DNA of 64,000 bases from an uncultured Candidatus Saccharibacteria bacterium (GCA_965230925.1 OZ246403.1:330455-394454); one strand, 5' to 3'. Counted from the stretch's first letter, positions 15,241 through 30,638 are shown. The notes: generated by a model from the letters alone, not told the origin. Numbers and translations are program-made.

Positions 15241-16283
15241 TAGCCTTCGATCTCGGTCAGACTTTTCCGTCGCGACTCAATATCATTTACGAGTTCCATA
15301 AGAACAGTGGCCGCCGGCACCGCCAAAATTATTCCAATGAAACCAACAAGCTTGGCTCCGGCAAGAAGCGAGAGAATGACCACCAGTGATGGCACGCCCA
15401 CAATTTTCCGGACTACCATCGGGTAGAGCAAGTGATTCTCAAGTTGTTGAATAACCACATAGAGAAGTAGCGCCAAGACTCCAGTTGTTGGGCCGCTGGC
15501 AAAAGCAAGAAGAACACCGGGCACAGCCGAGAGAATTGGCCCAATAACGGGAATGAGCTCGAAAACAGCCGCAAGAATTGCCAGCACCAGCGCATACTCA
15601 ACTCCAAGAAGCCAAAGTCCAAGATAAACAAACAGTCCCACAATCAATCCAAGCAAGAGCTGACCCTGCATCCAGAAACCAATTTTGCGCTGGGAACGCC
15701 GCCAGAGATCAAGAATATATTTCTCATAACGCAAGGGTGCGACCAGACGAATAAAGTTCTCTACTCCATCTTGTTGCACCGCAAGATAAAAGGAAATGAC
15801 GATCACAATAAGCAAACTAGTAACACTGCCAAAAATGGTTATTACCACATTGCCACTGTGGACAAGACTCCCGATAAAAGAGAAAAAGGCTTGTTGCAAA
15901 GTCAGAATAAATTCCTGCGGACTGAGATTGCCTAAAATGATGGCGAAGTAGTCGCGCGCGGTGGTAAACCACGGCAAGGCCGCGAGCTTGGCCGGCAAAG
16001 TAACAGAAGCCCGAACTAGGTCCTCGAAAACTTGAAAAAGAAATAGCGGGAAAAGACTTAAGAAAGCGGCAATGGTTCCGAGATAAACCATAATCACCGC
16101 CGCGACTCGAGGAATACGCGCGCGCCCAAGGAAGCGCGTAATCGGCTCCGTCGCGGCGGCAATCACCACCGCTACCAAGACCAAGAGAACTAGGTCTCGC
16201 AAATAGTAGAGAGCCGCCAAGACCAGAAAAGAGAATACCAGCCGCCAAATCGTGCCGGTAGTAATTTGGAGTTGCGTCGTCAC
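15240..16283 (-). CDS. AI-2E family transporter (PerM/UPF0118)
   Basis: Eight TM helices and the characteristic C-terminal GIILAVPAATVL segment. Confidence 0.7.
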   Translation of the reverse strand: MTTQLQITTGTIWRLVFSFLVLAALYYLRDLVLLVLVAVVIAAATEPITRFLGRARIPRVAAVIMVYLGTIAAFLSLFPLFLFQVFEDLVRASVTLPAKLAALPWFTTARDYFAIILGNLSPQEFILTLQQAFFSFIGSLVHSGNVVITIFGSVTSLLIVIVISFYLAVQQDGVENFIRLVAPLRYEKYILDLWRRSQRKIGFWMQGQLLLGLIVGLFVYLGLWLLGVEYALVLAILAAVFELIPVIGPILSAVPGVLLAFASGPTTGVLALLLYVVIQQLENHLLYPMVVRKIVGVPSLVVILSLLAGAKLVGFIGIILAVPAATVLMELVNDIESRRKSLTEIEG

Positions 16284-16295
16284 CCTTTTACAATA

Positions 16296-17576
16296 CTAAA
16301 AATGGAGGATTTTGCCAAACTTCTCGGTGGCTTCCCCTTCGCTCGTTGGCCCCACCACGGCAAGATTAAGTTTAGCGTTTTGGAAAATTTCTTCGGCGAT
16401 TCGCCGGAGATCTTGGGCGTTTACGGCTTCAATCTTGGCTGCAAGGGCTGGCGCCGTCTCAAATTTATGCTTGAGTAGTTCTTGCAAACCACTGAAAGTG
16501 GCTTGAGAACTAGAAGTCTCAAGGCCCAAGTAAAGGTGGCCAATCATTGAGTCCTTCACCCGACGGAGCTCGGCTTCAGGCACGGTCTCGGTGGTCAACT
16601 TTTTGCATTCTTCAATCATGGCCACAACAGCCGGCTCAAGAAGGGTGTTGTTGACTCCTGCCGAAATCGCAAGATACCCGTGATCGGTGTATGAATCTTG
16701 ACTCGCCCGCACATAGTAAGCGGCTCCCATTTCCTCGCGAATGCGAACAAACAAACGAGAACTCATTCCCCCACCCAGAAGAGTAGCAAGGACTTCGAGC
16801 GTCATTTCATCCGCGCTCATTATCCCCGCCGAACGCACCCCGAGCACCACATGACTTTGGTCAGACTTTTTTGTTTTTACCCTGAAGGCTGGGTCACTTT
16901 GGTTTTCTCTCACGCCCAGTTTGTCGGCCTTCTCTCCTTTAGACATCGTGGCAAATAAATTATTTACACTCGCCAGGGCTTGATCAGGAGCAAAACGCCC
17001 CGACACTACCACGAGCGTGGCTTGAGGCAAGTAGTGAGCCGCGCGATATTTCAAAAGATCCGTTTGGGAAAAACTTCGCACCGTTTCTTTGGTCCCCGCA
17101 ATACCCCAGCCCGCGGGTTGATCGCCATAAAGTAGCTCCATAAAAAGATCGTGCACCTGGTGATGTGGCATGTCTTCATACATATTTATTTCCTCAATGA
17201 TCACACCTTTCTCACGTTCAATCTCTGGCTCAGGCAAGGTAGAGTGAAGATAAATATCGGCCACCAAATCAAGAGCTCGAGCGAAGTGTGGCGGCGCCAC
17301 CGTGGCATAATAACCAGTATATTCTTGAGCCGTAAAAGCATTGTACGCTGCTCCAAGTGAATCAAGCTCGGACGACAAATCAATTGGCTTCTTCCTTTGA
17401 TCGGTACCCTTAAAACACATGTGTTCGAGAAAGTGAGAGATGCCGGCAATGGGTGCGGTCTCATACTTAGAACCCGCGGCCACCAGCACCAAGGTGGTCA
17501 CACTCAACGCCTCCGGTTGCGGAATCGTAATCAATCGCAACCCGTTTGCCAAAACATGCTTCTCCGGGGTCATCAA
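16296..17576 (-). CDS. M16-family zinc peptidase (insulinase-like)
   Basis: Inverted zinc-binding motif HFLEHM...E. Confidence 0.8.
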   Translation of the reverse strand: MMTPEKHVLANGLRLITIPQPEALSVTTLVLVAAGSKYETAPIAGISHFLEHMCFKGTDQRKKPIDLSSELDSLGAAYNAFTAQEYTGYYATVAPPHFARALDLVADIYLHSTLPEPEIEREKGVIIEEINMYEDMPHHQVHDLFMELLYGDQPAGWGIAGTKETVRSFSQTDLLKYRAAHYLPQATLVVVSGRFAPDQALASVNNLFATMSKGEKADKLGVRENQSDPAFRVKTKKSDQSHVVLGVRSAGIMSADEMTLEVLATLLGGGMSSRLFVRIREEMGAAYYVRASQDSYTDHGYLAISAGVNNTLLEPAVVAMIEECKKLTTETVPEAELRRVKDSMIGHLYLGLETSSSQATFSGLQELLKHKFETAPALAAKIEAVNAQDLRRIAEEIFQNAKLNLAVVGPTSEGEATEKFGKILHF

Positions 17577-17582
17577 TTATTT

Positions 17583-18827
17583 TTACTTTACTGAAACTCG
17601 GTTAAGAATCTCGCTCACCGCAATTCTTTCCTGCTCGCCCGTATCCCGATCGCGGATAGTAACAGTATTGTCTTCAAGAGTCTGGAAGTCGATGGTGACG
17701 CAATACGGCGTGCCGATCTCGTCTTGGCGGCGGTAGCGCTTACCGATATTGCCATTATCGTCAAACATAATTTCGGGAATTTGCTGTTTTAAATTTTGAT
17801 ACACCTCGCGCGCTTTGGCGACCAAATCGGGTTTGTTTTTCAAAAGAGGAAAGATCGCGGCTTTAATGGGAGCCACAGCTGAATTTAGCTTGAGATATGT
17901 TCTCGGTTCACCACCGAGCTCGTCTTCGGTATAAGCATCAGACAGAATGGCTAAAACTGTCCGATCAACTCCAAAAGACGGTTCGATGACGTGGGGAATT
18001 AACTTAGTTTTGGTTTCTTCGTCTTGATAATCCAGCTTGTGGGCCAAGAGATCGTAGTCGGTACGATAAGCCAAGCCATAAAGTTCTTTGCGACCAAAAG
18101 GAAAATCGAATTCGAAGTCGATCGTGCGTTTAGAGTAATGAGCTCGATCCTCATCAGAAACTTCTAACTCATGCACATGGTCAGGCTGGAGACCGATGTC
18201 CTTCATCCACTCGTGCATCTCCCGACGAAATTCTTCGAAGGATTTCTCCCAATCTTCTGGACGAACAAAATACTCTATTTCCATTTGCTCCAGCTCGCGC
18301 AAGCGGAAAATGAAGTCGCGCGGCGCAATTTCATTACGAAAAGCCTTCCCAATTTGAGCTAAACCAAAAGGTAGTTTGGGGTGGAAAGAATCAACAATGT
18401 TTTTAAAATTAACAAACATCCCCTGTGCTGTTTCTGGACGGAGATAAGCAAGACCAGTATCAAACATCATATTAAACTGGCGACTCGCGCCGAGCTTCCC
18501 ACCACAATCTGGACAAGCGCCAGACTCATGATCAGCGCGAAATTGGTGGTGACATTTCTCACACTCCACCAGCGGATCAGCAAAGCCAGCCACATGACCG
18601 CTTGCTTCCCACACCTTTTTATTCATAAGAATAGCCGCATCTACCCCGTACATATCTTCGCGGCTGTTTACAAATCGCTTCCACCATAAATTCTTCACAT
18701 TGTTTTTCAGCGCGAGACCATGCGGACCCCAGTCGAAGGTCCCCGCGAGACCACCATAAATCTCAGAGCCGGGATAAATAAATCCGCGACGTTTAGCAAA
18801 ACTGGTTAATTGATCGAGGGTAGGCAT
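17583..18827 (-). CDS. glyQS: glycyl-tRNA synthetase, alpha2 (GlyQS) type
   Basis: N-terminus MPTLDQLTSFAKRRGFIYPGSEIYGGLAGTFDWGPHG and class II motifs. Confidence 0.9.
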   Translation of the reverse strand: MPTLDQLTSFAKRRGFIYPGSEIYGGLAGTFDWGPHGLALKNNVKNLWWKRFVNSREDMYGVDAAILMNKKVWEASGHVAGFADPLVECEKCHHQFRADHESGACPDCGGKLGASRQFNMMFDTGLAYLRPETAQGMFVNFKNIVDSFHPKLPFGLAQIGKAFRNEIAPRDFIFRLRELEQMEIEYFVRPEDWEKSFEEFRREMHEWMKDIGLQPDHVHELEVSDEDRAHYSKRTIDFEFDFPFGRKELYGLAYRTDYDLLAHKLDYQDEETKTKLIPHVIEPSFGVDRTVLAILSDAYTEDELGGEPRTYLKLNSAVAPIKAAIFPLLKNKPDLVAKAREVYQNLKQQIPEIMFDDNGNIGKRYRRQDEIGTPYCVTIDFQTLEDNTVTIRDRDTGEQERIAVSEILNRVSVK

Positions 18828-18836
18828 TTTTTTGAA

Positions 18837-20765
18837 TTAAGGATTAACTTTCTCATCACCGAGTTCAAAGTCGGGCTCACTGCGAAGTTCCGTATTCAAC
18901 GCCGGACGACTCGACTCTAAGCGCGCATTAGTAAAGATATCGGTTCCTGTTAGCTTGGCGGCGGAAACTACATTTGGCGCCGTACCAACCTGGCTCAAAC
19001 TCGGAAGTAATGTAACCTGGAAAGAAACTTGCCGCGGCGGGCTCGAGTAACCACGACCCGCTTTTACCAAGCCCAGGTCCCAAACCACTTCACCACCATT
19101 TGGATTGAAGGTAATTTTTTCTTCCGCCGGAGCGCTTACTCCCGCCCATTTGATATACGAAGGCAAAGTGGCTCGGACGAAAGCTTGATCAACATCACTC
19201 GCCGTATTGGCCACTGACCACACAACGGTGTACGTGGTGTCGCGACCAACACGAGGCGGAATTGGACCCCTTTCCTCGAAAGGACCACTACCGTGAAGGG
19301 CCTTGGTCGAGAGTTGCACCACTGAACTTAATTTCACCTTCTTACTCACCACGGTTTGCACCGTTGCGCTTCCCGAACCAGATTCCGTTTTCCGCGCGCG
19401 GAAGGTGGCTACCAGATTAATCGTTTGGCCATCCACACCGTAGAGCGATGTCCCCGCAAAGCTAAAGCTCAAGCGACCAGTCCCACCTGGTGGAATTACC
19501 GCAAGATCGCGATTTTCTATCTTGGTCCAGAGAACGCTATTGGTCAAAGAATTATAAAATCCTGGTGAGGCAACAACCGAGGTCGGCTTCAACGCTCGAC
19601 CAGAAAGTTTAATCTCAAGGGTGGCATCACGAATTTCAACCGGTAGATTGTTGAAGTAAGTGAGATCCGCCCGCACCACCTGATCACTAGCGGCCACCTG
19701 CTCCGCGCCACGGTTACCATCCAGAGAAAATTCCAGGGCAATCTCCGGCTTCTCTATTGTGGAAAGGGCAAAGAGTGAACCATAATTGAGCGCGATCGTA
19801 CCTTCTTCTTCCGGATCTTCCGTACCAACCAGTGCCCGGAAGGATCGGGTTTCCTCATTTTCCCCTTCCACCACACCGCGAATTTTTATTTCCCGCTTTG
19901 CTCCCGGAGCAAAGTCCCCAAGTCGCCACAAAGTCTCACCAGACACCGGCGCTGGCGTAGCTCGCTTGAAGGTAAAACCGGGTGGGTAGGTCATGAGAAG
20001 CAAAAGGTCGTGCAGTGGCGCAATGGCTGCTGATTCAAGACCAACCGTAAATTCAATTTCTTGCCCACTAATAACCGATTCCGGTAAATCGAAGGACAGA
20101 AGTAGTGGCGAAGAATTAATTGTCACCGGATAGGATTGTTTCCGATCAAAGATCGCTCCCGAGCCGGGCAAACGATACTCTACAGTAAACTTAATATCCT
20201 GAGTCGAATCCTTCTCACCAAAGATTCGAGCTTTCACCGATTGCGAAACTGATTCTCGTGGTTTGAGCGATTCTAACTTAAGAGTCTCTCGCAAAAGCTC
20301 CCGCTCGCCCGTAATGACCCTAGTCCCTGGTGGATATTCCACCACCAACTGCGCGCCTTCAAGTGGGACATTGTTTTTATTTGTCACCACCACTTGGAGA
20401 TCAAGCTCACCACCAGAGGCGAGGGTTGTTGGTCCCGCCACTTCCACCGTCACATTTTGCGCCTCAATGAAACTGCCTCCGCTGTAGAGACGAAAAAAGG
20501 CAAAGCCGATAGCGAGGATAAAGAAAAGCAACGCGCCAACAAACGCCCAGATAAGCCAAGATGACTTTTTCTTTGCCATTAATGTTTTTGGTTCTGGTGA
20601 CCAGGCGGTAGAAACGGAATCTGACTCGAGCGCCAGTGGCGTCCGTCGAGGCTCGGCCACTGCTCCCGGTTGATAGAGGCGCGAACGAAGCCGCTCAACG
20701 CCGCTCAGATTATCACCTTTCATTCCTCGTATCGTACCATCAAAGGTGGCTCGCGGCCAGAGCAT
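18837..20765 (-). CDS. membrane-anchored protein with repeated beta-sandwich (CARDB/DUF11-like) domains
   Basis: A TM helix after about 60 aa, then about 550 aa of repeated beta-rich modules. The likely start is the internal MKGDNLS (20723) or MAKKKSS (20579), because the ORF as drawn overlaps recO by 26 nt. Confidence 0.45.
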   Translation of the reverse strand: MLWPRATFDGTIRGMKGDNLSGVERLRSRLYQPGAVAEPRRTPLALESDSVSTAWSPEPKTLMAKKKSSWLIWAFVGALLFFILAIGFAFFRLYSGGSFIEAQNVTVEVAGPTTLASGGELDLQVVVTNKNNVPLEGAQLVVEYPPGTRVITGERELLRETLKLESLKPRESVSQSVKARIFGEKDSTQDIKFTVEYRLPGSGAIFDRKQSYPVTINSSPLLLSFDLPESVISGQEIEFTVGLESAAIAPLHDLLLLMTYPPGFTFKRATPAPVSGETLWRLGDFAPGAKREIKIRGVVEGENEETRSFRALVGTEDPEEEGTIALNYGSLFALSTIEKPEIALEFSLDGNRGAEQVAASDQVVRADLTYFNNLPVEIRDATLEIKLSGRALKPTSVVASPGFYNSLTNSVLWTKIENRDLAVIPPGGTGRLSFSFAGTSLYGVDGQTINLVATFRARKTESGSGSATVQTVVSKKVKLSSVVQLSTKALHGSGPFEERGPIPPRVGRDTTYTVVWSVANTASDVDQAFVRATLPSYIKWAGVSAPAEEKITFNPNGGEVVWDLGLVKAGRGYSSPPRQVSFQVTLLPSLSQVGTAPNVVSAAKLTGTDIFTNARLESSRPALNTELRSEPDFELGDEKVNP

Positions 20766-21309
20766 TGGTGACCTCCGTTACCAGATCGGCGCGCACAGGA
20801 GATGGAAGCGCAAGACTCTCGCGAGTCCACGGAAGCTCGAGCTCTGGGCGCTTCAAGTAACCTAGCGCCGCGAGGAGGCGCGCGCCCGCGAGAAGTGAAT
20901 AATTATTTAATTCTTCAGAAGAAAGCGGTGAGGTGAGAACCAAGTTCCAACCATCTTTCAAGTCATAGTAAGCGGCTTCAAGTGGGGCCTCGCCGTGGAC
21001 CAAACGTTGGGCGAGAGACAACACTCGGCCAAAAGCCCGCAATTTCGTAAGTAATTCGGCGCGTTCAGCCACCAATAAACGCTCAGCTGAAACGAGTCGC
21101 CAATATTCTTTACCGCGCACCAGACTCACCCTCACCACGGACCCATAACCAATATGTCCACGCAACTTCGACGTCACCTTCCGCACCCCTTGAGCAATCG
21201 CCGTCACGAGACCCAAGTCGGGCGTCAGAACATCAACCAAAAGGCTCGCTTCCCCGCGCAGACGCGTGCCTAAAACTATTCCTTCAGTCTGATAGAGTCG
21301 GTAAGCCAA
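20740..21309 (-). CDS. recO: DNA repair protein RecO (short form without the Zn finger)
   Basis: OB-fold N-terminus EGIVLGTRLRGEASLLVDVLTPDLGLVTAIAQGVRK and a helical C-terminus. It lies upstream of glyQS, as in many bacteria. Confidence 0.65.
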   Translation of the reverse strand: MAYRLYQTEGIVLGTRLRGEASLLVDVLTPDLGLVTAIAQGVRKVTSKLRGHIGYGSVVRVSLVRGKEYWRLVSAERLLVAERAELLTKLRAFGRVLSLAQRLVHGEAPLEAAYYDLKDGWNLVLTSPLSSEELNNYSLLAGARLLAALGYLKRPELELPWTRESLALPSPVRADLVTEVTNALAASHL

Positions 21310-23445
21310 TTAATTCGTCAACTGAAACACCCCACTACCACCATATATCGTTTGGCCATTTACCACGGCCTTAAGGCGGAAGTAATAAAAACCGGGTGGC
21401 ACTGTGGCCAGACTCATGGATTCGCTGAAGTCATTGCTGGTGGTAAAGGCGTTGAAGTTGGTGGCGGGTTGATTGGCGGCAGTAAACAGCTCCATGGTTA
21501 AGTTTTGACTCATACCTACGCCAGTGGTAGTCCAGGTTACGGTGTGGCCGGTTTGATTAGACCAATTGGCATTGTATGTTGGCGAGGTGATGGTGATAAC
21601 TGGGGTTGAACCTCCGCTCCCACCACCCGAATTTCCTCCTGATGTCGCTGTAACCGTGAACCACGAGCTCCAACCTCCAGTCTCTACTCCACCAATAGAG
21701 GCAAAGATCCGCAAACGATATTGGCCAGAAGTGAGGCTGTTAGGAAGCGTAAGTGTCCCGCTACCGGCACTGTTCGTTGCCGTTGTGCTATACATCACCG
21801 TACCCGATTGATCCAAAACCTTTACATTAAGTGTTTGCGCTCCCGCGAGACCACTCGACACCCAACTGTAAACCACACTCGAACCAGGCTGATAGGAACC
21901 ACCACTCGGGTTGGTAACGAAGAGTGAAGCTGTGGGATTGTTTGGTGGAGGAGGTGGGGGCGGCGGAGGTGGATTATTACCACCAGTGTCACCCGTCAAC
22001 TGAAACACCCCACTACCACCATATATCGTTTGGCCATTTACCACGGCCTTAAGGCGGAAGTAATAAAAACCGGGTGGCACTGTGGCCAGACTCATGGATT
22101 CGCTGAAGTCATTGCTGGTGGTAAAGGCGTTGAAGTTGGTGGCGGGTTGATTGGCGGCAGTAAACAGCTCCATGGTTAAGTTTTGACTCATACCTACGCC
22201 AGTGGTAGTCCAGGTTACGGTGTGGCCGGTTTGATTAGACCAATTGGCATTGTATGTTGGCGAGGTGATGGTGATTGAAGGAGTAAAGTTGTTTGAGCCA
22301 CTATTCGAGGAAGAGTTGTCGTCACCAGAATCATCATCGGAAGCTTCTTCGTTCACACTAAACCAAGAACTCCAGGCTTCGCGAGTTTGCCCACCAAGAA
22401 CGGCGGAAACTCTAAATCGGTATTGTCCATCATTGAGTGAATTAGAAAGATGGAAACTCTTAGAGTCATTAGTGCCACTATCACTCTCCGAATCTACCGC
22501 CGATCCAGAGTTGTTGAGTAGTTGGATAGAAATAGACGGGTTGCTGACCGGCGAATTACTAATCTGCCAAGAAACAGGAACATAATCTCCTGGCTCATAA
22601 CTTCCCCCCGTCGGACTGGTCACAAAAACGGTGGGGGTTGAAGATTGATTGTTACTAGAAGATCCGGCTTCTGGATTAAGCACTATTTTCAACAAATGCG
22701 TGTCGTTTCCCTGAGGGATCGCCACAGAAAGTTGATTATCTTGGGAACCTTGTCGAGTGGTAGTAAAGCTGTGGAGCTCGCCAGTCTTGAGCATCACAGC
22801 CCTAACATAGCCGTTAAAGTCAGTGCCATATGTACCAATTATCGTATTACCACGCTGAATCTTCACTAAAGCACCAGGAATTGGTGAATTATTACCGCCA
22901 GCACGCACAACCCAAACATCTACCGCCCTAAAACCAGTAGTATTATTTGGCGTAGTTACAGCGGGAGCGTTATTACACCCATACAGCTGATTCATCTTGG
23001 CGCGGGTTGAATTACCGAAATTACCCGTAGGGTTGGTTAAGCCATTGGGGGTTAATATTTCACTTCGGTATTTGTTTTGGAACCAGTTTATCGCGAAAGT
23101 AGTAGCCACATCATATGAAAAACGTAATTGAGGATTTAAAGTAGCAACACCATTGTAGCCCTCAAATTTTAGCGCTTGATGAAGCCTGGCCACCTCCGTC
23201 CCAAAATCACTTAAACTCAAATTATTGTTGAAGGTGTAGCACCAGCCACCAGAATTAGCGCTACCCGACCCAGAATTTCCTGAACCTGAGTTGGCTTGCT
23301 GATTTTGCAAATTCTGTAACTGACTTTGCAAAGACGTAATTTGCGCCTGAATATTCGCAATTTGTTCAGCCAAAGTCTCGGCCGAAACTCCAAGAGGCAA
23401 AAGAAGAAAAGCGACCAGTAAACCGGCTAAAAGTTTTTTAAACAT
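21310..23445 (-). CDS. secreted surface protein: coiled coil, PG_binding_1-like domain, Ig-like repeats and a poly-Pro linker
   Basis: Signal peptide, then the QIANIQAQITSLQSQLQNLQNQ heptads, the PG-binding-like segment EVARLHQALKFEGYNG...TRAKMNQLYG, a PPPPPPPPPPP linker, and a duplicated 94-aa C-terminal module. Confidence 0.55.
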   Translation of the reverse strand: MFKKLLAGLLVAFLLLPLGVSAETLAEQIANIQAQITSLQSQLQNLQNQQANSGSGNSGSGSANSGGWCYTFNNNLSLSDFGTEVARLHQALKFEGYNGVATLNPQLRFSYDVATTFAINWFQNKYRSEILTPNGLTNPTGNFGNSTRAKMNQLYGCNNAPAVTTPNNTTGFRAVDVWVVRAGGNNSPIPGALVKIQRGNTIIGTYGTDFNGYVRAVMLKTGELHSFTTTRQGSQDNQLSVAIPQGNDTHLLKIVLNPEAGSSSNNQSSTPTVFVTSPTGGSYEPGDYVPVSWQISNSPVSNPSISIQLLNNSGSAVDSESDSGTNDSKSFHLSNSLNDGQYRFRVSAVLGGQTREAWSSWFSVNEEASDDDSGDDNSSSNSGSNNFTPSITITSPTYNANWSNQTGHTVTWTTTGVGMSQNLTMELFTAANQPATNFNAFTTSNDFSESMSLATVPPGFYYFRLKAVVNGQTIYGGSGVFQLTGDTGGNNPPPPPPPPPPNNPTASLFVTNPSGGSYQPGSSVVYSWVSSGLAGAQTLNVKVLDQSGTVMYSTTATNSAGSGTLTLPNSLTSGQYRLRIFASIGGVETGGWSSWFTVTATSGGNSGGGSGGSTPVITITSPTYNANWSNQTGHTVTWTTTGVGMSQNLTMELFTAANQPATNFNAFTTSNDFSESMSLATVPPGFYYFRLKAVVNGQTIYGGSGVFQLTN
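21317..21597 (-). repeat. 281-bp perfect direct repeat, copy 1 (second copy at 21995-22275), inside the surface-protein gene
   Basis: Base-for-base identical sequence, checked over the full length, 678 bp apart. It encodes the module ITITSPTYNANWSNQTGHTVTWTTTGVGMSQNL...GGSGVFQLT twice. Confidence 0.9.
21995..22275 (-). repeat. 281-bp perfect direct repeat, copy 2
   Basis: Identical to 21317-21597. Confidence 0.9.
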
Positions 23446-23480
23446 TATTAAGTTTTTAATCGCAAACTAGTAATGCTGTA

Positions 23481-26400
23481 CTATACCACAATCTCGGGCG
23501 CATTTACTTCAGCAAAGTGGATAGCGCTTGACTTAGTGGCCTTTTTTAAGTCTTCAAGTAAAACAGTAGGAAAATTCTGGTAAACGCTCGGGAGAGTGGT
23601 CTGCACCACGTCTCCCGGCTTAAGACCCTTTTCTTTCCGTAAATCTTGAATTTCCCGAATCAGCTCGCGCAACTCCCCCTCTTGTTTGAGTTCTGGAGTA
23701 ATCGTGAGATCGAGCTCAACTTCTGTTGGTAAATTATCTACGAAAATTATTTCTTTTACATTTACTTCATCGCGAATGAGGGCGAGAAATTCTTCGGCCA
23801 AAGATTGTTTAATCTTGAGCGAAGCAAGCGGCTGACGAACTTTGATCCCTGCTTTCGTTCTGGCTTCAAGCGCGAGTGACACTAAGCGGCGCGTTTCAAT
23901 CATCATCGCGAGGATCGTTTGATCAAATTCTCTTGCAGTAGGCCAGTTAGACAAATGCACGCTTTCTTCATCGCTCAAAATTTTTACTTTCTGCCAAATG
24001 GTCTCGGCGAGGAAAGGCGTGAAAGGTGCCAAAACTTTTGAAAGTTTATGCAAGACATGGCCCAAAACCCGAATCGCATCAGCCTTGTCTTGCACATCAT
24101 CACCCTTAAAGCGCTCGCGCGAGCGACGCAAGTACCAGACTGAAAGATCGTCGACAAAGAGATCGAAGGGTCGAGCGGCAAGATCAAGGGTGTAATTATC
24201 GAGACCAGCTGTGACCTCTTGCCCCAGTTGCGCCAAGCGATTCAAGATCCAACGATCGAGCACATGTTTACACTCGCCAAGATCTTTCTCGTCCCCGCTC
24301 GCCTCGCCTTTATACAATTCATAAAAAGCAAGGACGTTCTCGAGGCGCATAATGACCCGACGCAAGACTTCTCCTAAACCTTTTTCGGAAAAGTTGAGAT
24401 CATCGCCGCGCATCGCCGGGGAAGCAAGCAGGTAAAGTCGCAAGGCATCAGCGCCATATTTATCGAGAGTCGGCTCAATTTCCGGATAATTCTTGAGTCG
24501 CTTCGACATTTTCTGACCATCTTCAGCCAAGATCAAACCGTTCACGATCACATTCTGAAACGCCGGTTTGTCGAAGAGCGCCACCGAGAGCACGGTGAGC
24601 ACATAGAACCAACCGCGTGTTTGGTCCAACCCTTCGCCAATGAAATTTGCCGGAAAATTGTGATCAAACCATTCTTTATTCTCAAACGGATAATGCGCTT
24701 GGCCATAAGGCATCGAGCCAGAGTCGTACCAAACGTCGAAGACTTCCGGCACCCGGATCATCTTCTCGCCGCTCTCATCCACCAGTTCTAAGTCGTCAAT
24801 ATATGGTCGATGAAGATCGAGCTCGAACTGCTCATTGTGTGGCAATGAAACAAAAGACAGCTCCCGCACTTCCGAATTCTTAATAAAATCTTCTGGCTTG
24901 TTGGCAATCGTCTGCTCATTAGTCCAGCCAAAAGCTCCGGACCACAACATCCAGGTTACATATTCATGCGTCGATATGAGAATCGTTTTGTTTTGATACT
25001 TCGTCTCGAGCTCATACATAAAGGCCATCGCGCGACGGCGCAAGTCGGCCAAATTTTCCCCACCTTCCGGCCGCTTCCACATCATTTCGATATAGGTCGA
25101 GAAAAAGTCGTGATACTCTCCCACCGTTTTACCATCAAATTCGCCAGTATGAATTTCTTCAATCCGCTCATCAAAGATAATTTTATCGAGCGGGTAACCA
25201 ATTTCCTTTGCCACAATCTCGCTTGTCTCTTTACCGCGAGTAAAGGGCGAAGAAAAGATTAGATCGATTTTTTCTCCCGCGAGTTTCTTAGCTGCCTCTT
25301 GGGTTTCCTTCACCCCACGTTCGGTCAGTTTGGCACCACTGTTTTGCTTACTACTTATAATCCCCGTCGCATTGTTTTCCCCATGACCATGACGCATCAC
25401 GAGGTAGCGATTGCCGGATTTCTTCACATGCTTTCGCAAATCTTCAACCGAGCCAATGACCACCACTTCACCGCTTGCTTTGCGCCAGACCGGTAGCGGC
25501 GTACCCCAGAATCGCGAGCGCGAGACGGCCCAATCGCGGGCACCCTCAAGCCATTTGCCGAAGCGACCATCTTTAATATGTTCAGGGACCCACTTAACAC
25601 TCGCATTATGCTTGAGCATTTTCTCCTTAAGCTCGGTAACTTTAATAAACCAAGAACTCGCCGCGTAATTGAGAAGCGGTGTCTCACAACGCCAACAATG
25701 CGGGTAGGAGTGAACAATCTTTTTCTTATCAAACAATAAATTCTTGGCCGCCAAATATTTGATAATCAAAATGTCGGTTGATTGATGATCATCCTTCGGC
25801 TTCACGTCAAGCCCCGCAAAATCCTTCGCTTCCGGTTTCATCTTGCCTTCCATGTCCACATGTTGAATAAACGGCAATTTATTCGCCTCGCCCAACTTCA
25901 TATCATCTTCACCAAAAGCAGGGGCAATATGCACAATCCCCGTCCCATCTTCTGTGGTCACAAAATCAGCCCCAAAAACTTCCCCTTCAGTGATGTAATA
26001 ATCAAAAAGGGTTTTGTATTTCTTACCGATTAGTTTTTCACCAGAAAATTCTTCAACAATCTCAAATTCTTTTTCTTTCAAAACGTCAGTAAGGCGCTCT
26101 TTGGCTAAAATATAATTTTCTTCGCCTATTTTTATTCGCACATAATTCGTACCAGTATTTACCGCGAGGGCCGCATTGCCGGGCAAAGTCCAAGGTGTGG
26201 TGGTCCAAGCAAGCAAATATTCCTTTGTTTCGGATTTCGAATTTAGAATTTCGAATTTTACATATACAGATATGTCAGTGATATCTTTGTAACCCTGATT
26301 CACCTCGAAGTTCGCGAGCGTCGTCCCACAACGTGGACACAAGTGCATCGATTTATAGCCTTCATAAACCAAACCTTTGTCCCAAAGAGTTTTGAAAACC

Positions 26401-26876
26401 CACCAACCGCTTTCCATGAAGCTCGGGTCCATCGTTTTGTAATCCCGCTCCATGTCGACGAAGCGACCGAGCCGCGGAATCACCCTCTTCCACTCATCAG
26501 CATAACGGAGCACACTCTCGCGCGCCTTCTCGTTGAAGGTCACAATACCTAGGTTCTCAATATCTTTTTTCGTCTTAAGGCCGAGTTCCTTCTCGATCAA
26601 ATTCTCAATCGGCAAACCGTGGCAGTCCCAACCCCAGCGCCGAAGCACGCGTTTACCCCGCATGGTCTGATAACGCGGGATCACATCCTTGAGCGTACTT
26701 GCGAGCAGGTGACCATAGTGAGGCGTGCCGGTAGCGTACGGTGGGCCGTCGTAAAACACGAAATCGCCGCTTTTTCCTTCAAGCGATTTCTCAAAAATTT
26801 TCTTGTCTTGCCAAAACTTCAGAATTTCTTCCTCTCGCTTGGCAACTTGAGACTTATTTATGTCCTTCTCAGTCAT
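23481..26876 (-). CDS. ileS: isoleucyl-tRNA synthetase (type 2) with an inserted histidine-phosphatase-like domain
   Basis: HIGH (PHYGHLLAS), the WCISR-like box (WAVSRSRFWGTPLP) and KMSKS (GQKMSKRL) are all present. About 195 extra residues between the WGTP box and the DVWYDSG segment carry histidine-phosphatase motifs. Confidence 0.9.
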   Translation of the reverse strand: MTEKDINKSQVAKREEEILKFWQDKKIFEKSLEGKSGDFVFYDGPPYATGTPHYGHLLASTLKDVIPRYQTMRGKRVLRRWGWDCHGLPIENLIEKELGLKTKKDIENLGIVTFNEKARESVLRYADEWKRVIPRLGRFVDMERDYKTMDPSFMESGWWVFKTLWDKGLVYEGYKSMHLCPRCGTTLANFEVNQGYKDITDISVYVKFEILNSKSETKEYLLAWTTTPWTLPGNAALAVNTGTNYVRIKIGEENYILAKERLTDVLKEKEFEIVEEFSGEKLIGKKYKTLFDYYITEGEVFGADFVTTEDGTGIVHIAPAFGEDDMKLGEANKLPFIQHVDMEGKMKPEAKDFAGLDVKPKDDHQSTDILIIKYLAAKNLLFDKKKIVHSYPHCWRCETPLLNYAASSWFIKVTELKEKMLKHNASVKWVPEHIKDGRFGKWLEGARDWAVSRSRFWGTPLPVWRKASGEVVVIGSVEDLRKHVKKSGNRYLVMRHGHGENNATGIISSKQNSGAKLTERGVKETQEAAKKLAGEKIDLIFSSPFTRGKETSEIVAKEIGYPLDKIIFDERIEEIHTGEFDGKTVGEYHDFFSTYIEMMWKRPEGGENLADLRRRAMAFMYELETKYQNKTILISTHEYVTWMLWSGAFGWTNEQTIANKPEDFIKNSEVRELSFVSLPHNEQFELDLHRPYIDDLELVDESGEKMIRVPEVFDVWYDSGSMPYGQAHYPFENKEWFDHNFPANFIGEGLDQTRGWFYVLTVLSVALFDKPAFQNVIVNGLILAEDGQKMSKRLKNYPEIEPTLDKYGADALRLYLLASPAMRGDDLNFSEKGLGEVLRRVIMRLENVLAFYELYKGEASGDEKDLGECKHVLDRWILNRLAQLGQEVTAGLDNYTLDLAARPFDLFVDDLSVWYLRRSRERFKGDDVQDKADAIRVLGHVLHKLSKVLAPFTPFLAETIWQKVKILSDEESVHLSNWPTAREFDQTILAMMIETRRLVSLALEARTKAGIKVRQPLASLKIKQSLAEEFLALIRDEVNVKEIIFVDNLPTEVELDLTITPELKQEGELRELIREIQDLRKEKGLKPGDVVQTTLPSVYQNFPTVLLEDLKKATKSSAIHFAEVNAPEIVV
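24822..25415 (-). other. histidine phosphatase (PGM/SixA-like, His_Phos_1-type) domain inserted in IleRS
   Basis: RYLVMRHGHGENN (RHG catalytic motif), FSSPFTRGKETSEIVA (SSPxxRAxQTA-like) and TILISTHEYV (second catalytic His). Corresponds to about residues 488-685 of the 1131-aa protein. Confidence 0.6.
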
Positions 26877-26905
26877 TCACCCTCAATCTTAGGCGTAAAA
26901 AGCTC

Positions 26906-28645
26906 TTAGGGCAAATTTGGATCGTAAAGATAAATATCGGGATCACTCAAGCCGTGGCGGAAATCTTGCCACACAATACGCTCGCCGCTCACCGATGGCT
27001 TCGTTTGACCAGCCGAATTAATTGTAATCTGGGTAACCACATCAGAATCTAAATTGAGTCGGAAAACATCTTCATTGTCTGAACCACCTGCAATGCCTGA
27101 CCAAACCACCTGATTGCCCGAGATTTGTGCGTGTGACTCAACCAAGCTATCACTAGTAATTGCTTGCCCTAAGGTGCCTGGCGGCGTGGAGGTGCTAAGA
27201 GTAATTAAATAGAGATTAAAACCATTATTATCGGCCCTCTTCCAAACCAACTTGTTGCCATCTAGAGCTGGCTCGCCCACCATGGTTCCACCACCAAGAG
27301 GTAAAGTGATTCCGGAGGTTAATTGTCGCGCCGTCATCGGTGCAGCATTTTCCACATTCTGATTAGACCACACTAGCCAAGAGTCAGAAATTTTTGGATT
27401 TATTTTGTCCCCCGGACCAGCCGTGGCCACAATAGCACTACCAGAAACCAGGTTTAGAAAATGGATATTCCAATTACCGTTCCGGTTGTCTTGCCAAGCA
27501 ATCCATTCGTTCGAAATTGTTGGATACTGTTGCTCAAAAGAATTATTCGTAACATTAATTTTACCGAGATCCGCAAACCAGGAGAAATAAACATAAACAT
27601 CAGTCTGCCCCTCACTTATCTCCTCCCAAACAACTACCCAACCCATTCCCAGCTCTGGTCCAGGATAATCGAAACTTGATATCTGTGGTCTGGCGCGCAA
27701 TTCAGGCCCTTCACTCAGCGGCGTGGTTGATCCGGTTTGCAAGTCCCGCACATAAATAGCGTGTAAACCATTGGAAATATCGTGCCAAGCTACAAAATTA
27801 CCCGAAATATCTGGATCAATTTGGCCGCCTTCGCTAGATAATTGCTGAACATGTTCTTCTTCTCCTGTAGGAATTTCTACTTCGATCTGTCGGGGTTCAG
27901 TATCCACAGCACCACAGTTGTCGGTAACTCTAAGCGTCGCGTTATATATCCCCGCTTCGGTGTAAATATGGTTTACCACCGGTGAAGTGGTGGACGTACC
28001 ATCTCCAAACTGCCAGAGATAGGAAACGATTGTGCCATTAGCATCGCTCGATCCAGAACCATCAAAAGGAACTATTTCTCCCGGCTGTGAGTCAAACCAA
28101 TCATCACCCGGATCAGCAACTGGCGGCACATTATTATCGCAGGGATTAATTGTGGCCACATTTACGGTGAAATTGAGTGGAGCTGACACGGCACCACACT
28201 CATCTCGCACGAGAAGTGTGGCTTGGAAATTGCCGGGTGAAGAGTAGCTATGGGTAACCGTGTGTGCCGTTTGCCAATCACTCGAAGCGCCATCGCCGAA
28301 GATCCAAGAGTAAGCCGTTACCGAACCATCGGAATCTGGATCAAAAGAAAGTGAACCATTAAAAACAATTGGCGTGCCCTGATCGCCAGAAGGAACAGGG
28401 TTCACCCGAGCAACAGGAGGTTGATTTACATTACAAGTATTGTAATGAGGGACTAAAGAAGGTTGTTCATCGAAGGGAATAACTTCTAGTGGCACTTGCT
28501 GTGTGCCGCCAGGCTTAGTGTCGGGGCCAGGATACGACTTACCAAAAAGACCGGTTGGTGAAGTTCTTGAAGACTGAACATAACCCACAGCTAGGAGAAG
28601 AATGACGAGAAGAAGAATAGCGGAGAAGCGGCTTTTATCAGACAT
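26906..28645 (-). CDS. secreted protein with tandem PKD domains and a TolB/PD40-like beta-propeller
   Basis: Signal peptide. PKD motifs VFNGSLSFDPDSDGSVTAYSWIFGDG and FDGSGSSDANGTIVSYLWQFGDGT. Repeated (I/V)(A/V)WxD..nGnw.IY blades. Confidence 0.6.
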   Translation of the reverse strand: MSDKSRFSAILLLVILLLAVGYVQSSRTSPTGLFGKSYPGPDTKPGGTQQVPLEVIPFDEQPSLVPHYNTCNVNQPPVARVNPVPSGDQGTPIVFNGSLSFDPDSDGSVTAYSWIFGDGASSDWQTAHTVTHSYSSPGNFQATLLVRDECGAVSAPLNFTVNVATINPCDNNVPPVADPGDDWFDSQPGEIVPFDGSGSSDANGTIVSYLWQFGDGTSTTSPVVNHIYTEAGIYNATLRVTDNCGAVDTEPRQIEVEIPTGEEEHVQQLSSEGGQIDPDISGNFVAWHDISNGLHAIYVRDLQTGSTTPLSEGPELRARPQISSFDYPGPELGMGWVVVWEEISEGQTDVYVYFSWFADLGKINVTNNSFEQQYPTISNEWIAWQDNRNGNWNIHFLNLVSGSAIVATAGPGDKINPKISDSWLVWSNQNVENAAPMTARQLTSGITLPLGGGTMVGEPALDGNKLVWKRADNNGFNLYLITLSTSTPPGTLGQAITSDSLVESHAQISGNQVVWSGIAGGSDNEDVFRLNLDSDVVTQITINSAGQTKPSVSGERIVWQDFRHGLSDPDIYLYDPNLP

Positions 28646-28648
28646 TCC

Positions 28649-30229
28649 CTACATTCTATCAAGAACGGGAATAGCAAGAAGAGCGAGACCAGTGGATAAC
28701 ACCCTGTCCACCGCCCGAGTAATAGTGAGTCGATAAGCTTCTTCAGCACTGCCAACAATTTGATTCTGGGCATAGAAGGCGTTGAAAGCGCTCGCCACCT
28801 CGGTGAGATAAGTTACGAGATGTTGCGGCGCAAGCTCTCGCGCGGCGCGAGAAACTACCTCAGGAAAGCGAATCAGTTTTCGTTCGAGATCGCCAATTTC
28901 CTCCACGGTAATATCCGCTTTTGTTTCAACATTACCTGCTTTTTCTAAAACCGAATGCGCCCGAGCGCGCGTGTATTGCAGATAGGGTCCGGAGTCACCC
29001 TCAAACGACAGGGATTTGTCGAAGTCGAAGATGATATCGCGACCGATTGCTTGTCGGAGAATGGAATATTTAATCGCCGCAATCGCCACTTTTTCCTGAA
29101 CTTCTGGATTATCTGATTTTTCTCTTAGCTTCTCTTTCGCTTCTTCAATCAATGCTTCAGCCGTAATCACCTTCCCCGTCCGCGATGACATCTTGCCAGT
29201 CGGTAAGCGCAACATGCCGTGACCAATGTGATGTGTTTTGGCCGCGAGGTCGGGGAAAATAAGTTCTAGTGCTTTGTGTAAGACACGGAAATAATCATTC
29301 ACTTCATTACCCGTGATAATTACTGACCGCTCGTACGGATAACGATCATATTTAATGTTAGCTAAACCTAATTCCTTCGCCTCGTACGTCGGCAAACCTT
29401 CAGAATTTAAGAAAACTCGGGTATGTAAACCGTATTGTTCGCCACGGAAAACTACTGCGCCATCACTCTTTTCAAAAACTTTACCGATACTTTCTTCCAC
29501 CAACTTTTTTCCAAACTCACCGGTCTCGCTCTCAAAAAAGTTAAAATCAAACTTCGTCCCGAGCTTGGCGTAAATTTTCTCAAACTCAGCGAGGGTTTCT
29601 TGCTTGCCTTGATCGTACAATTCATTAAGCGCCGCATCAGATCGCTCATAAACTTTCTTATTCAGAGCAATAATTTCTTGCTTCGCTGTCCCGCTTTCTT
29701 CATACGCCTTACTGCCGGCCACATAAGCTTTGCCCCAGTCATTTTCGCCCTGCTGCTTACCATAGAGCGCCTTCGCCACATGCAAACCCACATCGCCCTG
29801 ATAACAAGCGCGCTTCACTTCTGCGCCCACTGCTTCCGTTAACCCAGCGAGCGCTTCCCCAATCGTATTCGACATCAAGTGACCAATATGAAATTCTTTA
29901 AACGGATTCGGGTCTGTATACTCAAAAATTGTTTTCTGCTTCGCCGCGCTGGAGCTCTTCGCGATGGACGAAAGCGGGTTCTCGGTCAACCGCTTTACTT
30001 CAGCAGCAACAAATTCCGGTTTTAAAAAGAAGTTAATAAACCCCGGCCCAGCCACCGTGATTTTCTCAATAAACTCGGGTTTACTCTGCTCGAGTTCGGC
30101 CACAAGCTCGGCCGCCGGTCGGCCTGACTTCATCGCAAGATTCGTAGAATAATCACCATGCGCCGCGCTCTCCGGCACACTAAGTATCACCCCCTCCCCG
30201 AGCCAAGCCTTCAACTTTTCTTCAATCAC
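28649..30229 (-). CDS. argS: arginyl-tRNA synthetase
   Basis: HIGH (EFHIGHLMS) and the DALR anticodon-binding domain. Start is assigned to the GTG at 30229 (VIEEKLKAWL...), downstream of the terminator hairpin. The ORF track extends to 30307. Confidence 0.85.
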   Translation of the reverse strand: MIEEKLKAWLGEGVILSVPESAAHGDYSTNLAMKSGRPAAELVAELEQSKPEFIEKITVAGPGFINFFLKPEFVAAEVKRLTENPLSSIAKSSSAAKQKTIFEYTDPNPFKEFHIGHLMSNTIGEALAGLTEAVGAEVKRACYQGDVGLHVAKALYGKQQGENDWGKAYVAGSKAYEESGTAKQEIIALNKKVYERSDAALNELYDQGKQETLAEFEKIYAKLGTKFDFNFFESETGEFGKKLVEESIGKVFEKSDGAVVFRGEQYGLHTRVFLNSEGLPTYEAKELGLANIKYDRYPYERSVIITGNEVNDYFRVLHKALELIFPDLAAKTHHIGHGMLRLPTGKMSSRTGKVITAEALIEEAKEKLREKSDNPEVQEKVAIAAIKYSILRQAIGRDIIFDFDKSLSFEGDSGPYLQYTRARAHSVLEKAGNVETKADITVEEIGDLERKLIRFPEVVSRAARELAPQHLVTYLTEVASAFNAFYAQNQIVGSAEEAYRLTITRAVDRVLSTGLALLAIPVLDRM

Positions 30230-30240
30230 GAGAATTATCC

Positions 30241-30280
30241 TAACATAAAAACAGGGCCCGTCGCTTTCGCAACAGGCCCT
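30241..30280 (-). terminator. rho-independent terminator (AGGGCC...GGCCCT stem plus U-run)
   Basis: A 6-bp GC stem with a U-rich tail on the minus strand (GTTTTTATGTT), between the 112-aa ORF and the argS start. Confidence 0.4.
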
Positions 30281-30299
30281 CGCCATGGCAAGACCGAAA

Positions 30300-30638
30300 C
30301 TAAGCAATTGCTTTCATCTCGGCCTCACGAAAATCTTGGTAGCACACCTCTGCGGCAATGGGAATGGCTTTGATAAGCGATTCCTGTTCACTAGAAGTGA
30401 ACATTACCGACTCAAACTCAAGAGAAGCAAGCCACCTGTAGAATTCTGCTTCTTTCACCACCACCACGGAACCATCTCGACTGATTGTCTGAACTAAACC
30501 TGGACGATGGTCTTGTTCATAAATCTGTCGAATCCTTCTGGGACTGATGGGTCGTTCGAGAACCCGCCCAGAAATGTCTAACCAACCATTAGCCAAACGA
30601 CCAAGTGATCCGGTCAGAATCTTCGGTGATGATGACAT
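30300..30638 (-). CDS. hypothetical protein
   Basis: ORF only; no recognised motifs. Confidence 0.3.
   Translation of the reverse strand: MSSSPKILTGSLGRLANGWLDISGRVLERPISPRRIRQIYEQDHRPGLVQTISRDGSVVVVKEAEFYRWLASLEFESVMFTSSEQESLIKAIPIAAEVCYQDFREAEMKAIA

Follow-up and report, generated by a model that had tools for sequence, protein, structure and literature searches.

A histidine phosphatase domain embedded in the isoleucyl-tRNA synthetase of Paceibacteria-type Patescibacteria

Introduction

The isoleucyl-tRNA synthetase (IleRS) described here is encoded by ileS on the minus strand of a 64,000-nucleotide stretch of DNA deposited under the name of an uncultured Candidatus Saccharibacteria bacterium (GCA_965230925.1, OZ246403.1:330455-394454; the whole stretch is referred to as the window), and it carries a complete branch-1 histidine phosphatase domain at the tip of its connective peptide 3 (CP3). 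The insertion is in frame, ancient and common to a large clade of Paceibacteria-type Patescibacteria. With moderate confidence, the product is read as a bifunctional protein in which a normal type 2 IleRS holds at its CP3 tip a complete, independently folding PhoE/PspA-like phosphatase that serves as its dedicated partner.

Aminoacyl-tRNA synthetases (aaRSs) are among the best-studied enzymes, and here a second, unrelated catalytic domain lies inside an essential synthetase. Its predicted active site has been preserved in no fewer than 80 genomes representing species of a major uncultivated clade, and the domain is coupled to ileS even where the two are unfused, a strong comparative-genomic signal that points to a functional link between the phosphatase and isoleucine charging. 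The arrangement bears on how reduced-genome symbionts pack functions into essential genes, as well as on the annotation of the fused IleRS proteins.

The inserted phosphatase domain

The inserted domain and its predicted catalytic residues are located as follows.

24822..25415, minus strand: inserted branch-1 histidine phosphatase domain (PF00300), residues 488-685
25386..25394, minus strand: RHG motif, R495-H496-G497, with H496 as the predicted phospho-accepting nucleophile
25236..25238, minus strand: R547, predicted phosphate-binding Arg of SSPFTRGKET
25155..25157, minus strand: E574, predicted general acid (EEIHTGE)
24966..24968, minus strand: H637, second catalytic His (ILISTHEY)

A Pfam scan gave a strong match of His_Phos_1 (PF00300) to residues 492-655 of the full protein (E = 8.3e-31; 107.6 bits against a cut-off of 21.7), and the insert alone scored 112.5 bits (E = 2.7e-32), far beyond chance. 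The three motifs named in the initial annotation, LVMRHGHGENN, FSSPFTRGKETSEIVA and ILISTHEY, are all found and hold R495/H496, R547 and H637, respectively. Modelled on its own with AF2, the insert reached a pLDDT of 96.5 and a pTM of 0.92, as expected of a domain that folds independently. The model keeps the cap helices and cap region of small-molecule phosphatases, and a short C-terminal helix-plus-strand extension (model residues 168-188), which is also present in free Parcubacteria relatives, closes the domain. Its net charge is -6 in the window copy, with a mean of -3.8 across the family.

Foldseek aligned the insert model with PspA, PhoE and GpgP at a probability of 1.00 and TM scores of 0.75-0.79. 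The best 50 structures comprise small-substrate enzymes, namely, PspA, PhoE, GpgP (Rv2419c), TIGAR, CobC and riboflavin-pathway HFP, with cofactor-dependent phosphoglycerate mutases (dPGMs) ranking lower, and the protein phosphatases SixA, Sts and PGAM5 were absent from these 50. The closest solved relative by sequence is PhoE (E = 4e-14).

The domain had been introduced as a phosphoglycerate mutase (PGM)/SixA-like histidine phosphatase, of which the branch-1 assignment stands, while the likeness to PGM and SixA gave way to PhoE, PspA, GpgP and CobC as the closest families. The highest-scoring NCBIfam name is dPGM_arch and the second is a bifunctional RNase H/acid phosphatase (74 bits). A dPGM was rejected by dPGM_arch (75-79 bits against a cut-off of 225), pgm_1 (29 against 81.7) and PRK01295 (42 against 316), and residues 574-578 read E-I-H-T-G instead of E-R-H-Y-G, the dPGM motif at the catalytic Glu. 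SixA was rejected since TIGR00249 gave 35 bits against 74.5 and matched the first ~68 residues only, and cap helices are present in the model. Membership in CobC (71 against 162.9), PspA (63 against 350) and PRK13463 (55 against 277) was likewise rejected. As all substrate-specific cut-offs are failed, the insert is similar to phosphatases of the PhoE/PspA type but falls within none of the named substrate families.

The host synthetase and the site of insertion

The host protein retains the complete architecture of an IleRS, with the following features.

23481..26876, minus strand: ileS, complete 1131-aa IleRS, type 2 by its modelled fold, hosting the phosphatase domain; open reading frame (ORF) without internal stop
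26709..26720, minus strand: HIGH signature H53-Y-G-H56 (HYGH, residues 53-56), from the translation
25677..26279, minus strand: connective peptide 1 (CP1) editing domain, approximately residues 200-400, with WTTTPWT at 224-230 and GTGIVHIAPAFGEDD at 311-325
25503..25541, minus strand: CP2-CP3 linker ARDWAVSRSRFWG, residues 446-458, homologous to ScIleRS 453-ARDWNVSRNRYWG-465 (PMC7955072)
25416..25502, minus strand: N-terminal half of CP3, TPLPVWRKASGEVVVIGSVEDLRKHVKKS, residues 459-487, by alignment with insert-less IleRS
24741..24821, minus strand: C-terminal half of CP3, LDLHRPYIDDLELVDESGEKMIRVPEV, residues 686-712, aligned with the DLHRPYID... segment of insert-less IleRS
24717..24737, minus strand: DVWYDSG, residues 714-720, opening the second Rossmann-fold half; D714, W716, S719 and G720 invariant
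24498..24512, minus strand: KMSKR signature, residues 789-793; K789 and K792 invariant
23826..24257, minus strand: anticodon-binding domain, residues 874-1017 (PF08264, E = 2e-32)

The protein is identified as IleRS by TIGR00392 (ileS), which scores 889.5 bits against a curated equivalog cut-off of 621.4 and whose match is broken by the insert into two stretches, the first stopping at residue 491. Pfam recognises tRNA-synt_1 (split), Anticodon_1 and DUF5915 (PF19302). In an alignment of 61 homologs, all class I and editing landmarks fall on invariant or near-invariant columns: H53 and G55 are invariant and H56 is at least 90% conserved, while the invariant CP1 residues are W224, T225-T227, W229, T230, H316 and D325; the editing motifs WTTTPWT (224-230) and GEDD (322-325), i.e., the Thr-rich motif and the conserved Asp, are both present and invariant. 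The DWAVSRSRFWG box occupies residues 448-458. The uninterrupted 1131-aa IleRS with HIGH, WxxSRxRxWG, DxWxDSG and KMSKR of the initial annotation is thus borne out, every landmark having been located in the ORF. The full-length AF2 model (pLDDT 89, pTM 0.82) is closest among PDB structures to P. megaterium IleRS2 (8C8U, TMt 0.82), followed by the yeast, Candida and Thermus IleRSs, with type 1 enzymes lower and the insert covered by none of them; judged by the modelled fold, including the C-terminal DUF5915 region, the window enzyme is a type 2 IleRS.

The W464-D714 spacing is 249 residues in the window protein versus about 55-60 in relatives, in agreement with the ~250 versus ~60 residues first noticed between WGTPLPVW and DVWYDSG. 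Alignment with insert-less relatives reveals a clean insertion of ~195 residues between IGSVEDLRKHV and ELDLHRPYIDD, where insert-less enzymes have a loop of ~8 residues (e.g., ...ELEE-LSGKKIT-DLHK...). In the common form, short linkers of conserved sequence (KSGNxY; PHNxxYELDLHRP) join the domain to CP3. The site had been described as lying in the catalytic core; it is instead the tip of CP3, which is a peripheral subdomain of variable fold among IleRSs (PMC7191050). CP3 is the segment after the CP2-3 linker and before the second Rossmann half, comprising residues 459-526 in ScIleRS and 473-534 in CaIleRS (PMC7955072; PMC7191050). Candida IleRS has a beta-beta-alpha-alpha CP3, Thermus IleRS a zinc-bearing beta-alpha-alpha-beta-beta one and S. 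aureus IleRS one of three helices (PMC7191050), and the CP2-3 linker of the yeast enzyme (ARDWNVSRNRYWG) lines the pocket of the tRNA 3' end and of reveromycin (PMC7955072).

A near-invariant P-H-N at residues 679-681 (24834-24842) precedes the C-terminal junction (PHNxxYELDLHRP) and bears a superficial likeness to the His-Asn terminus of inteins; it probably serves to pack the insert against CP3. An intein was rejected on the histidine phosphatase fold, the lack of a Hint-domain Pfam match and the residue after HN, which is E, Q, G, R, A or K and only occasionally S. A mobile insertion was also rejected, the insert being ancient, with 46% mean identity across the clade. The family consensus around the insertion includes a CxxC...CxCGG zinc-knuckle (PVWxCxxC ... 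LxCxCGG), comparable with the zinc-bearing CP3 of Thermus IleRS; the window IleRS lacks all four cysteines, reading RKASGEV at 464-470 and VDESGEK at 697-703 (approximately 25467-25487 and 24768-24788).

Authenticity and distribution

The identical 1131-aa protein, with unchanged neighbours, is present in three independent sequencing-run assemblies. A search with the insert and both junctions retrieved dozens of junction-spanning IleRS fragments of 40-51% identity, which stem from Paceibacterota and from Nomura-, Uhr-, Kaiser-, Niyogi- and Vogelbacteria. PF00300 is present in 120/120 of the best full-length homologs (about 1100-1350 aa), all from Patescibacteria of Paceibacteria type. An exhaustive search for relatives covered 1.84 billion cluster representatives, in which the closest relatives of the insert are mostly embedded at ~residues 480-715 of ~1150-aa proteins distributed over many 50%-identity clusters. 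Among the 600 matches listed for GTDB species representatives, at least 185 pattern matches encode the insert. All 80 of the species-representative loci retrieved hold it in frame within a single ORF, which measures ~1100-1340 aa whenever the contig spans the entire gene.

An assembly chimera, raised in the initial annotation as one possible refutation, is excluded by the three assemblies and the 80/80 loci, and the survey of orthologs from the candidate phyla radiation recommended there found the same insertion to be common to the large Paceibacteria-type clade. The accompanying statement that no IleRS with such an insertion is known holds for the literature, in which a full-text search with varied wording found no description of an IleRS-phosphatase architecture, and fails for the databases, where the insertion is abundant and the norm in a large clade. 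Both component families are well known and their combination is abundant in databases, and it seems to be undescribed in the literature searched.

The fused IleRSs are mostly annotated as 'class I tRNA ligase family protein' or 'hypothetical protein'. A bulk project has deposited many Paceibacteria-type metagenome-assembled genomes as 'uncultured Candidatus Saccharibacteria', and individual genomes bear the names Spirochaetia, Nanoarchaeota or Methylomirabilis.

Conservation of the catalytic residues

The insert is the more variable part of the protein, with a mean pairwise identity of 46% versus 65-67% for the N-terminal core, CP1 (65%) and the second Rossmann half. Its catalytic set is constant all the same: N489, R495, H496, N502, G521, S543, R547, E574, E607 and H637 are kept in 61/61 full-length proteins, and R495, H496, N502, R547 and H637 in 203/203 inserted copies, among which position 574 is Glu in 201 and Asp in two. 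In stand-alone proteins, R547 and H637 are each found in 119/119, and two of the 119 are gapped at R495/H496. The set is also retained in the copies found in valyl-tRNA synthetase (ValRS). Catalytic residues that stay invariant while the insert as a whole diverges more quickly than the core are the mark of an active enzyme and not of structural filler, and the insert is therefore predicted to be an active phosphomonoesterase.

Stand-alone relatives beside ileS

The closest free relatives of the domain form a family of ~198 aa in Nealsonbacteria/Minisyncoccales (311 matches at E < 1e-10), sharing the catalytic residues and the C-terminal strand of the inserted copies. In all seven proteins looked up (nine loci), the free phosphatase gene lies directly upstream, on the same strand, of an insert-less ileS, at a spacing of -10 to +58 nt, and the genes often overlap. 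The insert-less neighbour (about 944-964 aa) is an ortholog of the window gene with 43-48% identity and an empty CP3 site. The gene order in most stand-alone loci is argS, phosphatase, ileS, small ORF and recO, and the window has the same outer neighbours.

28649..30307, minus strand: argS, upstream syntenic neighbour (Arg_tRNA_synt_N / tRNA-synt_1d / DALR_1)
20740..21309, minus strand: recO, downstream syntenic neighbour (PF11967 RecO_N)

Of the 80 fused loci, 50 have argS on the upstream side and 65 have recO on the downstream side. No free phosphatase copy was found in fused loci, nor a second family copy elsewhere in the 64-kb window. No remnant of a free phosphatase gene was detected by hmmsearch --max (E <= 10) in the gaps between argS and the fused ileS, which measure 3-1594 nt and are not conserved in content. 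The fused and adjacent states are therefore complementary, as in a 'Rosetta stone' pair, which would mean that the phosphatase and IleRS work together or must be made together; on this genomic pattern, the pair argues for a real functional partnership of one kind or another. The conserved adjacency supports such a link without favouring any of the roles suggested in the initial annotation, i.e., a new editing function, regulation or a nucleotide phosphatase.

In a neighbour-joining tree of the phosphatase domains rooted with PhoE/PspA outgroups, the stand-alone clade has 97/100 bootstrap support and lies close to the inserted copies, while deeper nodes reach 12-20%. With such deeper nodes, the stand-alone family may be either a sister group of the inserted domains or a branch within them, and the direction may have been fusion or fission.

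The JGI annotation of one free phosphatase (P0491) reads 'isoleucyl-tRNA synthetase'. In one stand-alone genome (L082:1313-2819), the upstream argS is replaced by a bAvd and reverse transcriptase pair, which resembles a diversity-generating retroelement, and a 1015-aa protein. In another stand-alone-type locus (L090:5604-8419), ileS is called as a pair of overlapping ORFs of 725 and 213 aa, corresponding to the catalytic and anticodon parts; a true split, a frameshift and an error of sequencing are all conceivable.

Additional copies, sites and domains

Rarer variants of the fused proteins depart from the common form in the number, site or kind of inserted domains.

P0382, P0349, P0372: phosphatase domain present at least twice
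P0382: phosphatase domains also in the anticodon-domain region, in the HYPFxN-FPADFIAEG interval and inside the second hairpin of CP3
P0320: second loop occupied by a GNAT, and CP1 containing a stretch that resembles an IS200-like Y1 transposase
P0338: second loop occupied by a kinase-like domain of the generic P-loop type
P0258: a ValRS in which two sites together hold four or more His_Phos_1 copies with intact catalytic residues

Every readable copy in the multi-copy and multi-site variants retains RHG...R...E...H. The second permissive loop of IleRS, from HYPFEN to FPADFIAEG in the second Rossmann half, hosts a kinase-like domain, a GNAT or a His_Phos domain. The P0258 protein is a ValRS, as valS models score best (380-410 bits), and one of its two sites, after WGHRIPVWY, corresponds topologically to the CP3 site of IleRS; members of this domain family have thus colonised the paralogous ValRS as well. 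Among the domain's closest relatives, the long proteins that were checked proved without exception to be IleRS or ValRS. Some variant copies group with the outgroups in the tree, suggesting separate acquisitions. The kinase-like domain of P0338 (AAA_18/AAA_33) has a weak likeness to APS and shikimate kinases, Pnkp1, Zeta and CPT and occurs in one cluster only; it was rejected as a clue to the substrate, its similarity being that of a generic P-loop kinase and uninformative. The variants, together with the NCBIfam exception model for an IleRS with a GNAT domain, indicate that class Ia synthetase loops in these bacteria are permissive and repeatedly capture enzyme domains, chiefly the phosphatase.

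Comparison with known systems

Class I synthetases tolerate large connective-peptide insertions in their Rossmann fold, and the accessory domains of aaRSs include CP1 editing and the eukaryotic WHEP, GST and EMAPII domains. To our knowledge, the insertions known in connective peptides of bacterial aaRSs are editing or RNA/zinc-binding modules, and a phosphoryl-transfer enzyme in this position was not found in the literature searched.

The fold and motifs of the window enzyme are like those of type 2 IleRSs, i.e., the eukaryote-like, mupirocin-resistant type (P. megaterium 8C8U, S. cerevisiae, C. albicans and T. thermophilus), with which it shares the domain order Rossmann, CP core, CP1 editing, CP2, CP3, anticodon-binding and DUF5915. 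The solved type 2 enzymes have a CP3 of up to about 60-70 residues, whereas that of the window hosts a 198-residue enzyme domain. The insert in turn resembles PhoE (G. stearothermophilus YhfR, 1EBB/1H2E), PspA (4IJ5, a metal-independent phosphoserine phosphatase), GpgP (Rv2419c, 4QIH) and CobC in fold (TM 0.75-0.79), size, cap and the catalytic R-H...R...E...H set, with 25-26% identity to PhoE and PspA and about 18-21% to GpgP and CobC. These enzymes are free-standing and have a known or broad substrate, whereas the insert is embedded in IleRS or genetically coupled to it, and its C-terminal helix-plus-strand extension sets it apart from them.

A curated precedent for a whole enzyme domain inside a bacterial IleRS is the NCBIfam model NF040702 (ileS_w_GNAT), with P0082 and P0320 as further examples; the inserted enzyme is a different one and, in the examples examined, so is the site. 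The window protein was rejected as a member of NF040702 (319 bits against a cut-off of 1999) and has no acetyltransferase Pfam match. The RNase H/acid phosphatase of the Mycobacterium Rv2228c type (NF005567) joins a CobC/PhoE-like histidine phosphatase to a nucleic-acid enzyme, but the fusion is end to end, the partner is different and the insert scores 74 bits against a cut-off of 326.

Function and alternative explanations

In the bifunctional protein proposed here, the IleRS part would perform normal aminoacylation and CP1 editing. In the insert, the phosphoryl group of the substrate would be transferred to H496 to give a phosphohistidine intermediate, with R495, N502, R547 and H637 holding the phosphate and E574 acting as the general acid. 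The phosphatase would belong to IleRS as its dedicated partner, linked to it by physical tethering or by co-translation, and would not be a random passenger. The cap region, the nearest structures, the mild acidity and the tolerance of several sites and copies weakly suggest that the substrate is a small phosphorylated metabolite or nucleotide and not protein or tRNA. The occurrence of several sites and copies also argues against the need for one exact geometry relative to the aminoacylation site. CP3 and the second loop may serve as permissive domain-insertion sites for engineered synthetases.

Several points weigh against this proposal. The insert lies below every substrate-specific NCBIfam equivalog cut-off, and conserved residues by themselves are no proof of turnover. 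The adjacency of the free phosphatase gene and ileS inside a housekeeping aaRS cluster could reflect co-expression only. The short conserved linkers, together with the pTM of 0.82 of the full-length model, suggest a fixed orientation of the domain in the common form with the insert at the CP3 site (site A), and a fixed orientation would fit a geometry-dependent role in cis.

In a tentative and rather unlikely proposal, the phosphatase is a hitherto unrecognised accessory activity of class Ia synthetases that acts on the synthetase's own reaction cycle. It would reverse an inhibitory phosphorylation of IleRS, as an antidote to Hip-like kinase toxins or as a growth switch; alternatively, it would heal phosphorylated 3' ends of tRNA-Ile or eliminate, at the active site, a phosphorylated by-product or inhibitor. 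The CP3 position right after the linker of the tRNA A76 pocket would then be functional, and the domain would represent a third kind of aaRS catalytic module beside synthesis and editing.

It is similarly doubtful that the domain is a passenger, i.e., a housekeeping metabolic phosphatase for phosphoserine, a sugar phosphate or a nucleotide, carried by ileS for co-expression in cells with few regulators and with no mechanistic link to IleRS. The domain finds its nearest structures among metabolic phosphatases, the window is a cluster of housekeeping genes, and the copies at several sites, in tandem or beside unrelated GNAT and kinase-like domains, make the IleRS loops resemble general landing pads. 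However, the association with ileS is kept in two genetic forms and in deeply diverged lineages (fused proteins of 36-50% identity; adjacent genes in 7/7), the long proteins checked among the closest relatives are IleRS and ValRS with no other essential protein, and the linkers are short and conserved, all of which speaks against a passenger.

A protein phosphatase acting in cis, which would strip an inhibitory phosphate placed on IleRS by a HipA/HipT-like or regulatory kinase and thereby make the enzyme self-protecting or switchable, is distinctly unlikely. HipA/HipT-like toxin kinases target GltX and TrpS, and the histidine phosphatase superfamily includes the protein phosphatases SixA, Sts-1 and PGAM5; tight, conserved tethering of such an enzyme to its target would make sense. 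One variant bears a P-loop kinase-like domain in the neighbouring loop, and the inserts in the paralogous ValRS fit a threat that is class Ia-wide. Against this, 0/50 of the best structures are protein phosphatases and the cap region is of the small-molecule type, PADLOC was without a match and no kinase partner was identified in the window, while the kinase-like domain of P0338 is generic and confined to one cluster.

Very unlikely is a role in tRNA end-healing, in which the domain would remove a 3'-phosphate (or 2'-phosphate) from damaged CCA ends of tRNA-Ile and so enable charging. The HD domain of the bacterial CCA-adding enzyme offers a precedent, as its phosphoesterase activities are tied to tRNA 3'-end repair, and the second-best NCBIfam match of the insert is the bifunctional RNase H/acid phosphatase. 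We know of no histidine phosphatase that acts on RNA ends, which tells against the idea, as do the acidic average charge of the insert and the variant copies that lie far from the acceptor end, one of them in the anticodon-domain region. CP3 directly follows the linker lining the tRNA A76 pocket (PMC7955072), but a CP3-tRNA contact is not described for the IleRS-tRNA structures consulted.

That the insert is a glycolytic cofactor-dependent PGM fused to IleRS, and possibly the only PGM of the cell, is highly improbable. The best NCBIfam name is dPGM_arch and the S. pombe PGM is among the top matches, but dPGM_arch and pgm_1 both score far below their cut-offs, the motif at E574 differs as given above, and true dPGMs rank below phosphatases with TMt ~0.6. 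It is scarcely credible that the domain is an assembly chimera or that it elaborates the structure of CP3 without catalytic activity: nothing supports the chimera, which the three assemblies and the 80/80 in-frame loci refute, and a dead module, to which the structural variability of CP3 among IleRSs (PMC7191050) would lend itself, is contradicted by catalytic residues that stay invariant despite faster evolution than the core.

Neighbourhood of ileS in the window

No tRNA or Rfam match that could represent an RNA element near ileS was found in the window, and PADLOC gave no match linking it to a defence system. The minus strand encodes MetRS, a class II HGTP-type enzyme, IleRS and ArgRS within 17 kb (13813-30307), in a cluster that also holds recO, an M16 peptidase and an AI-2E transporter; the other three synthetases are free of extra domains. 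Two large secreted or surface-type proteins flank ileS on the minus strand (21310-23445 and 26906-28645), occupying the argS-ileS and ileS-recO gaps in which sister lineages hold short spacers or small ORFs. One is a 579-aa protein with PKD repeats. The other is a low-complexity protein of 711 aa, in which a stretch of ~100 residues (ITITSPTYNANW...GVFQLT) occurs twice almost identically and which also contains a PPPPPPPPPPP run.

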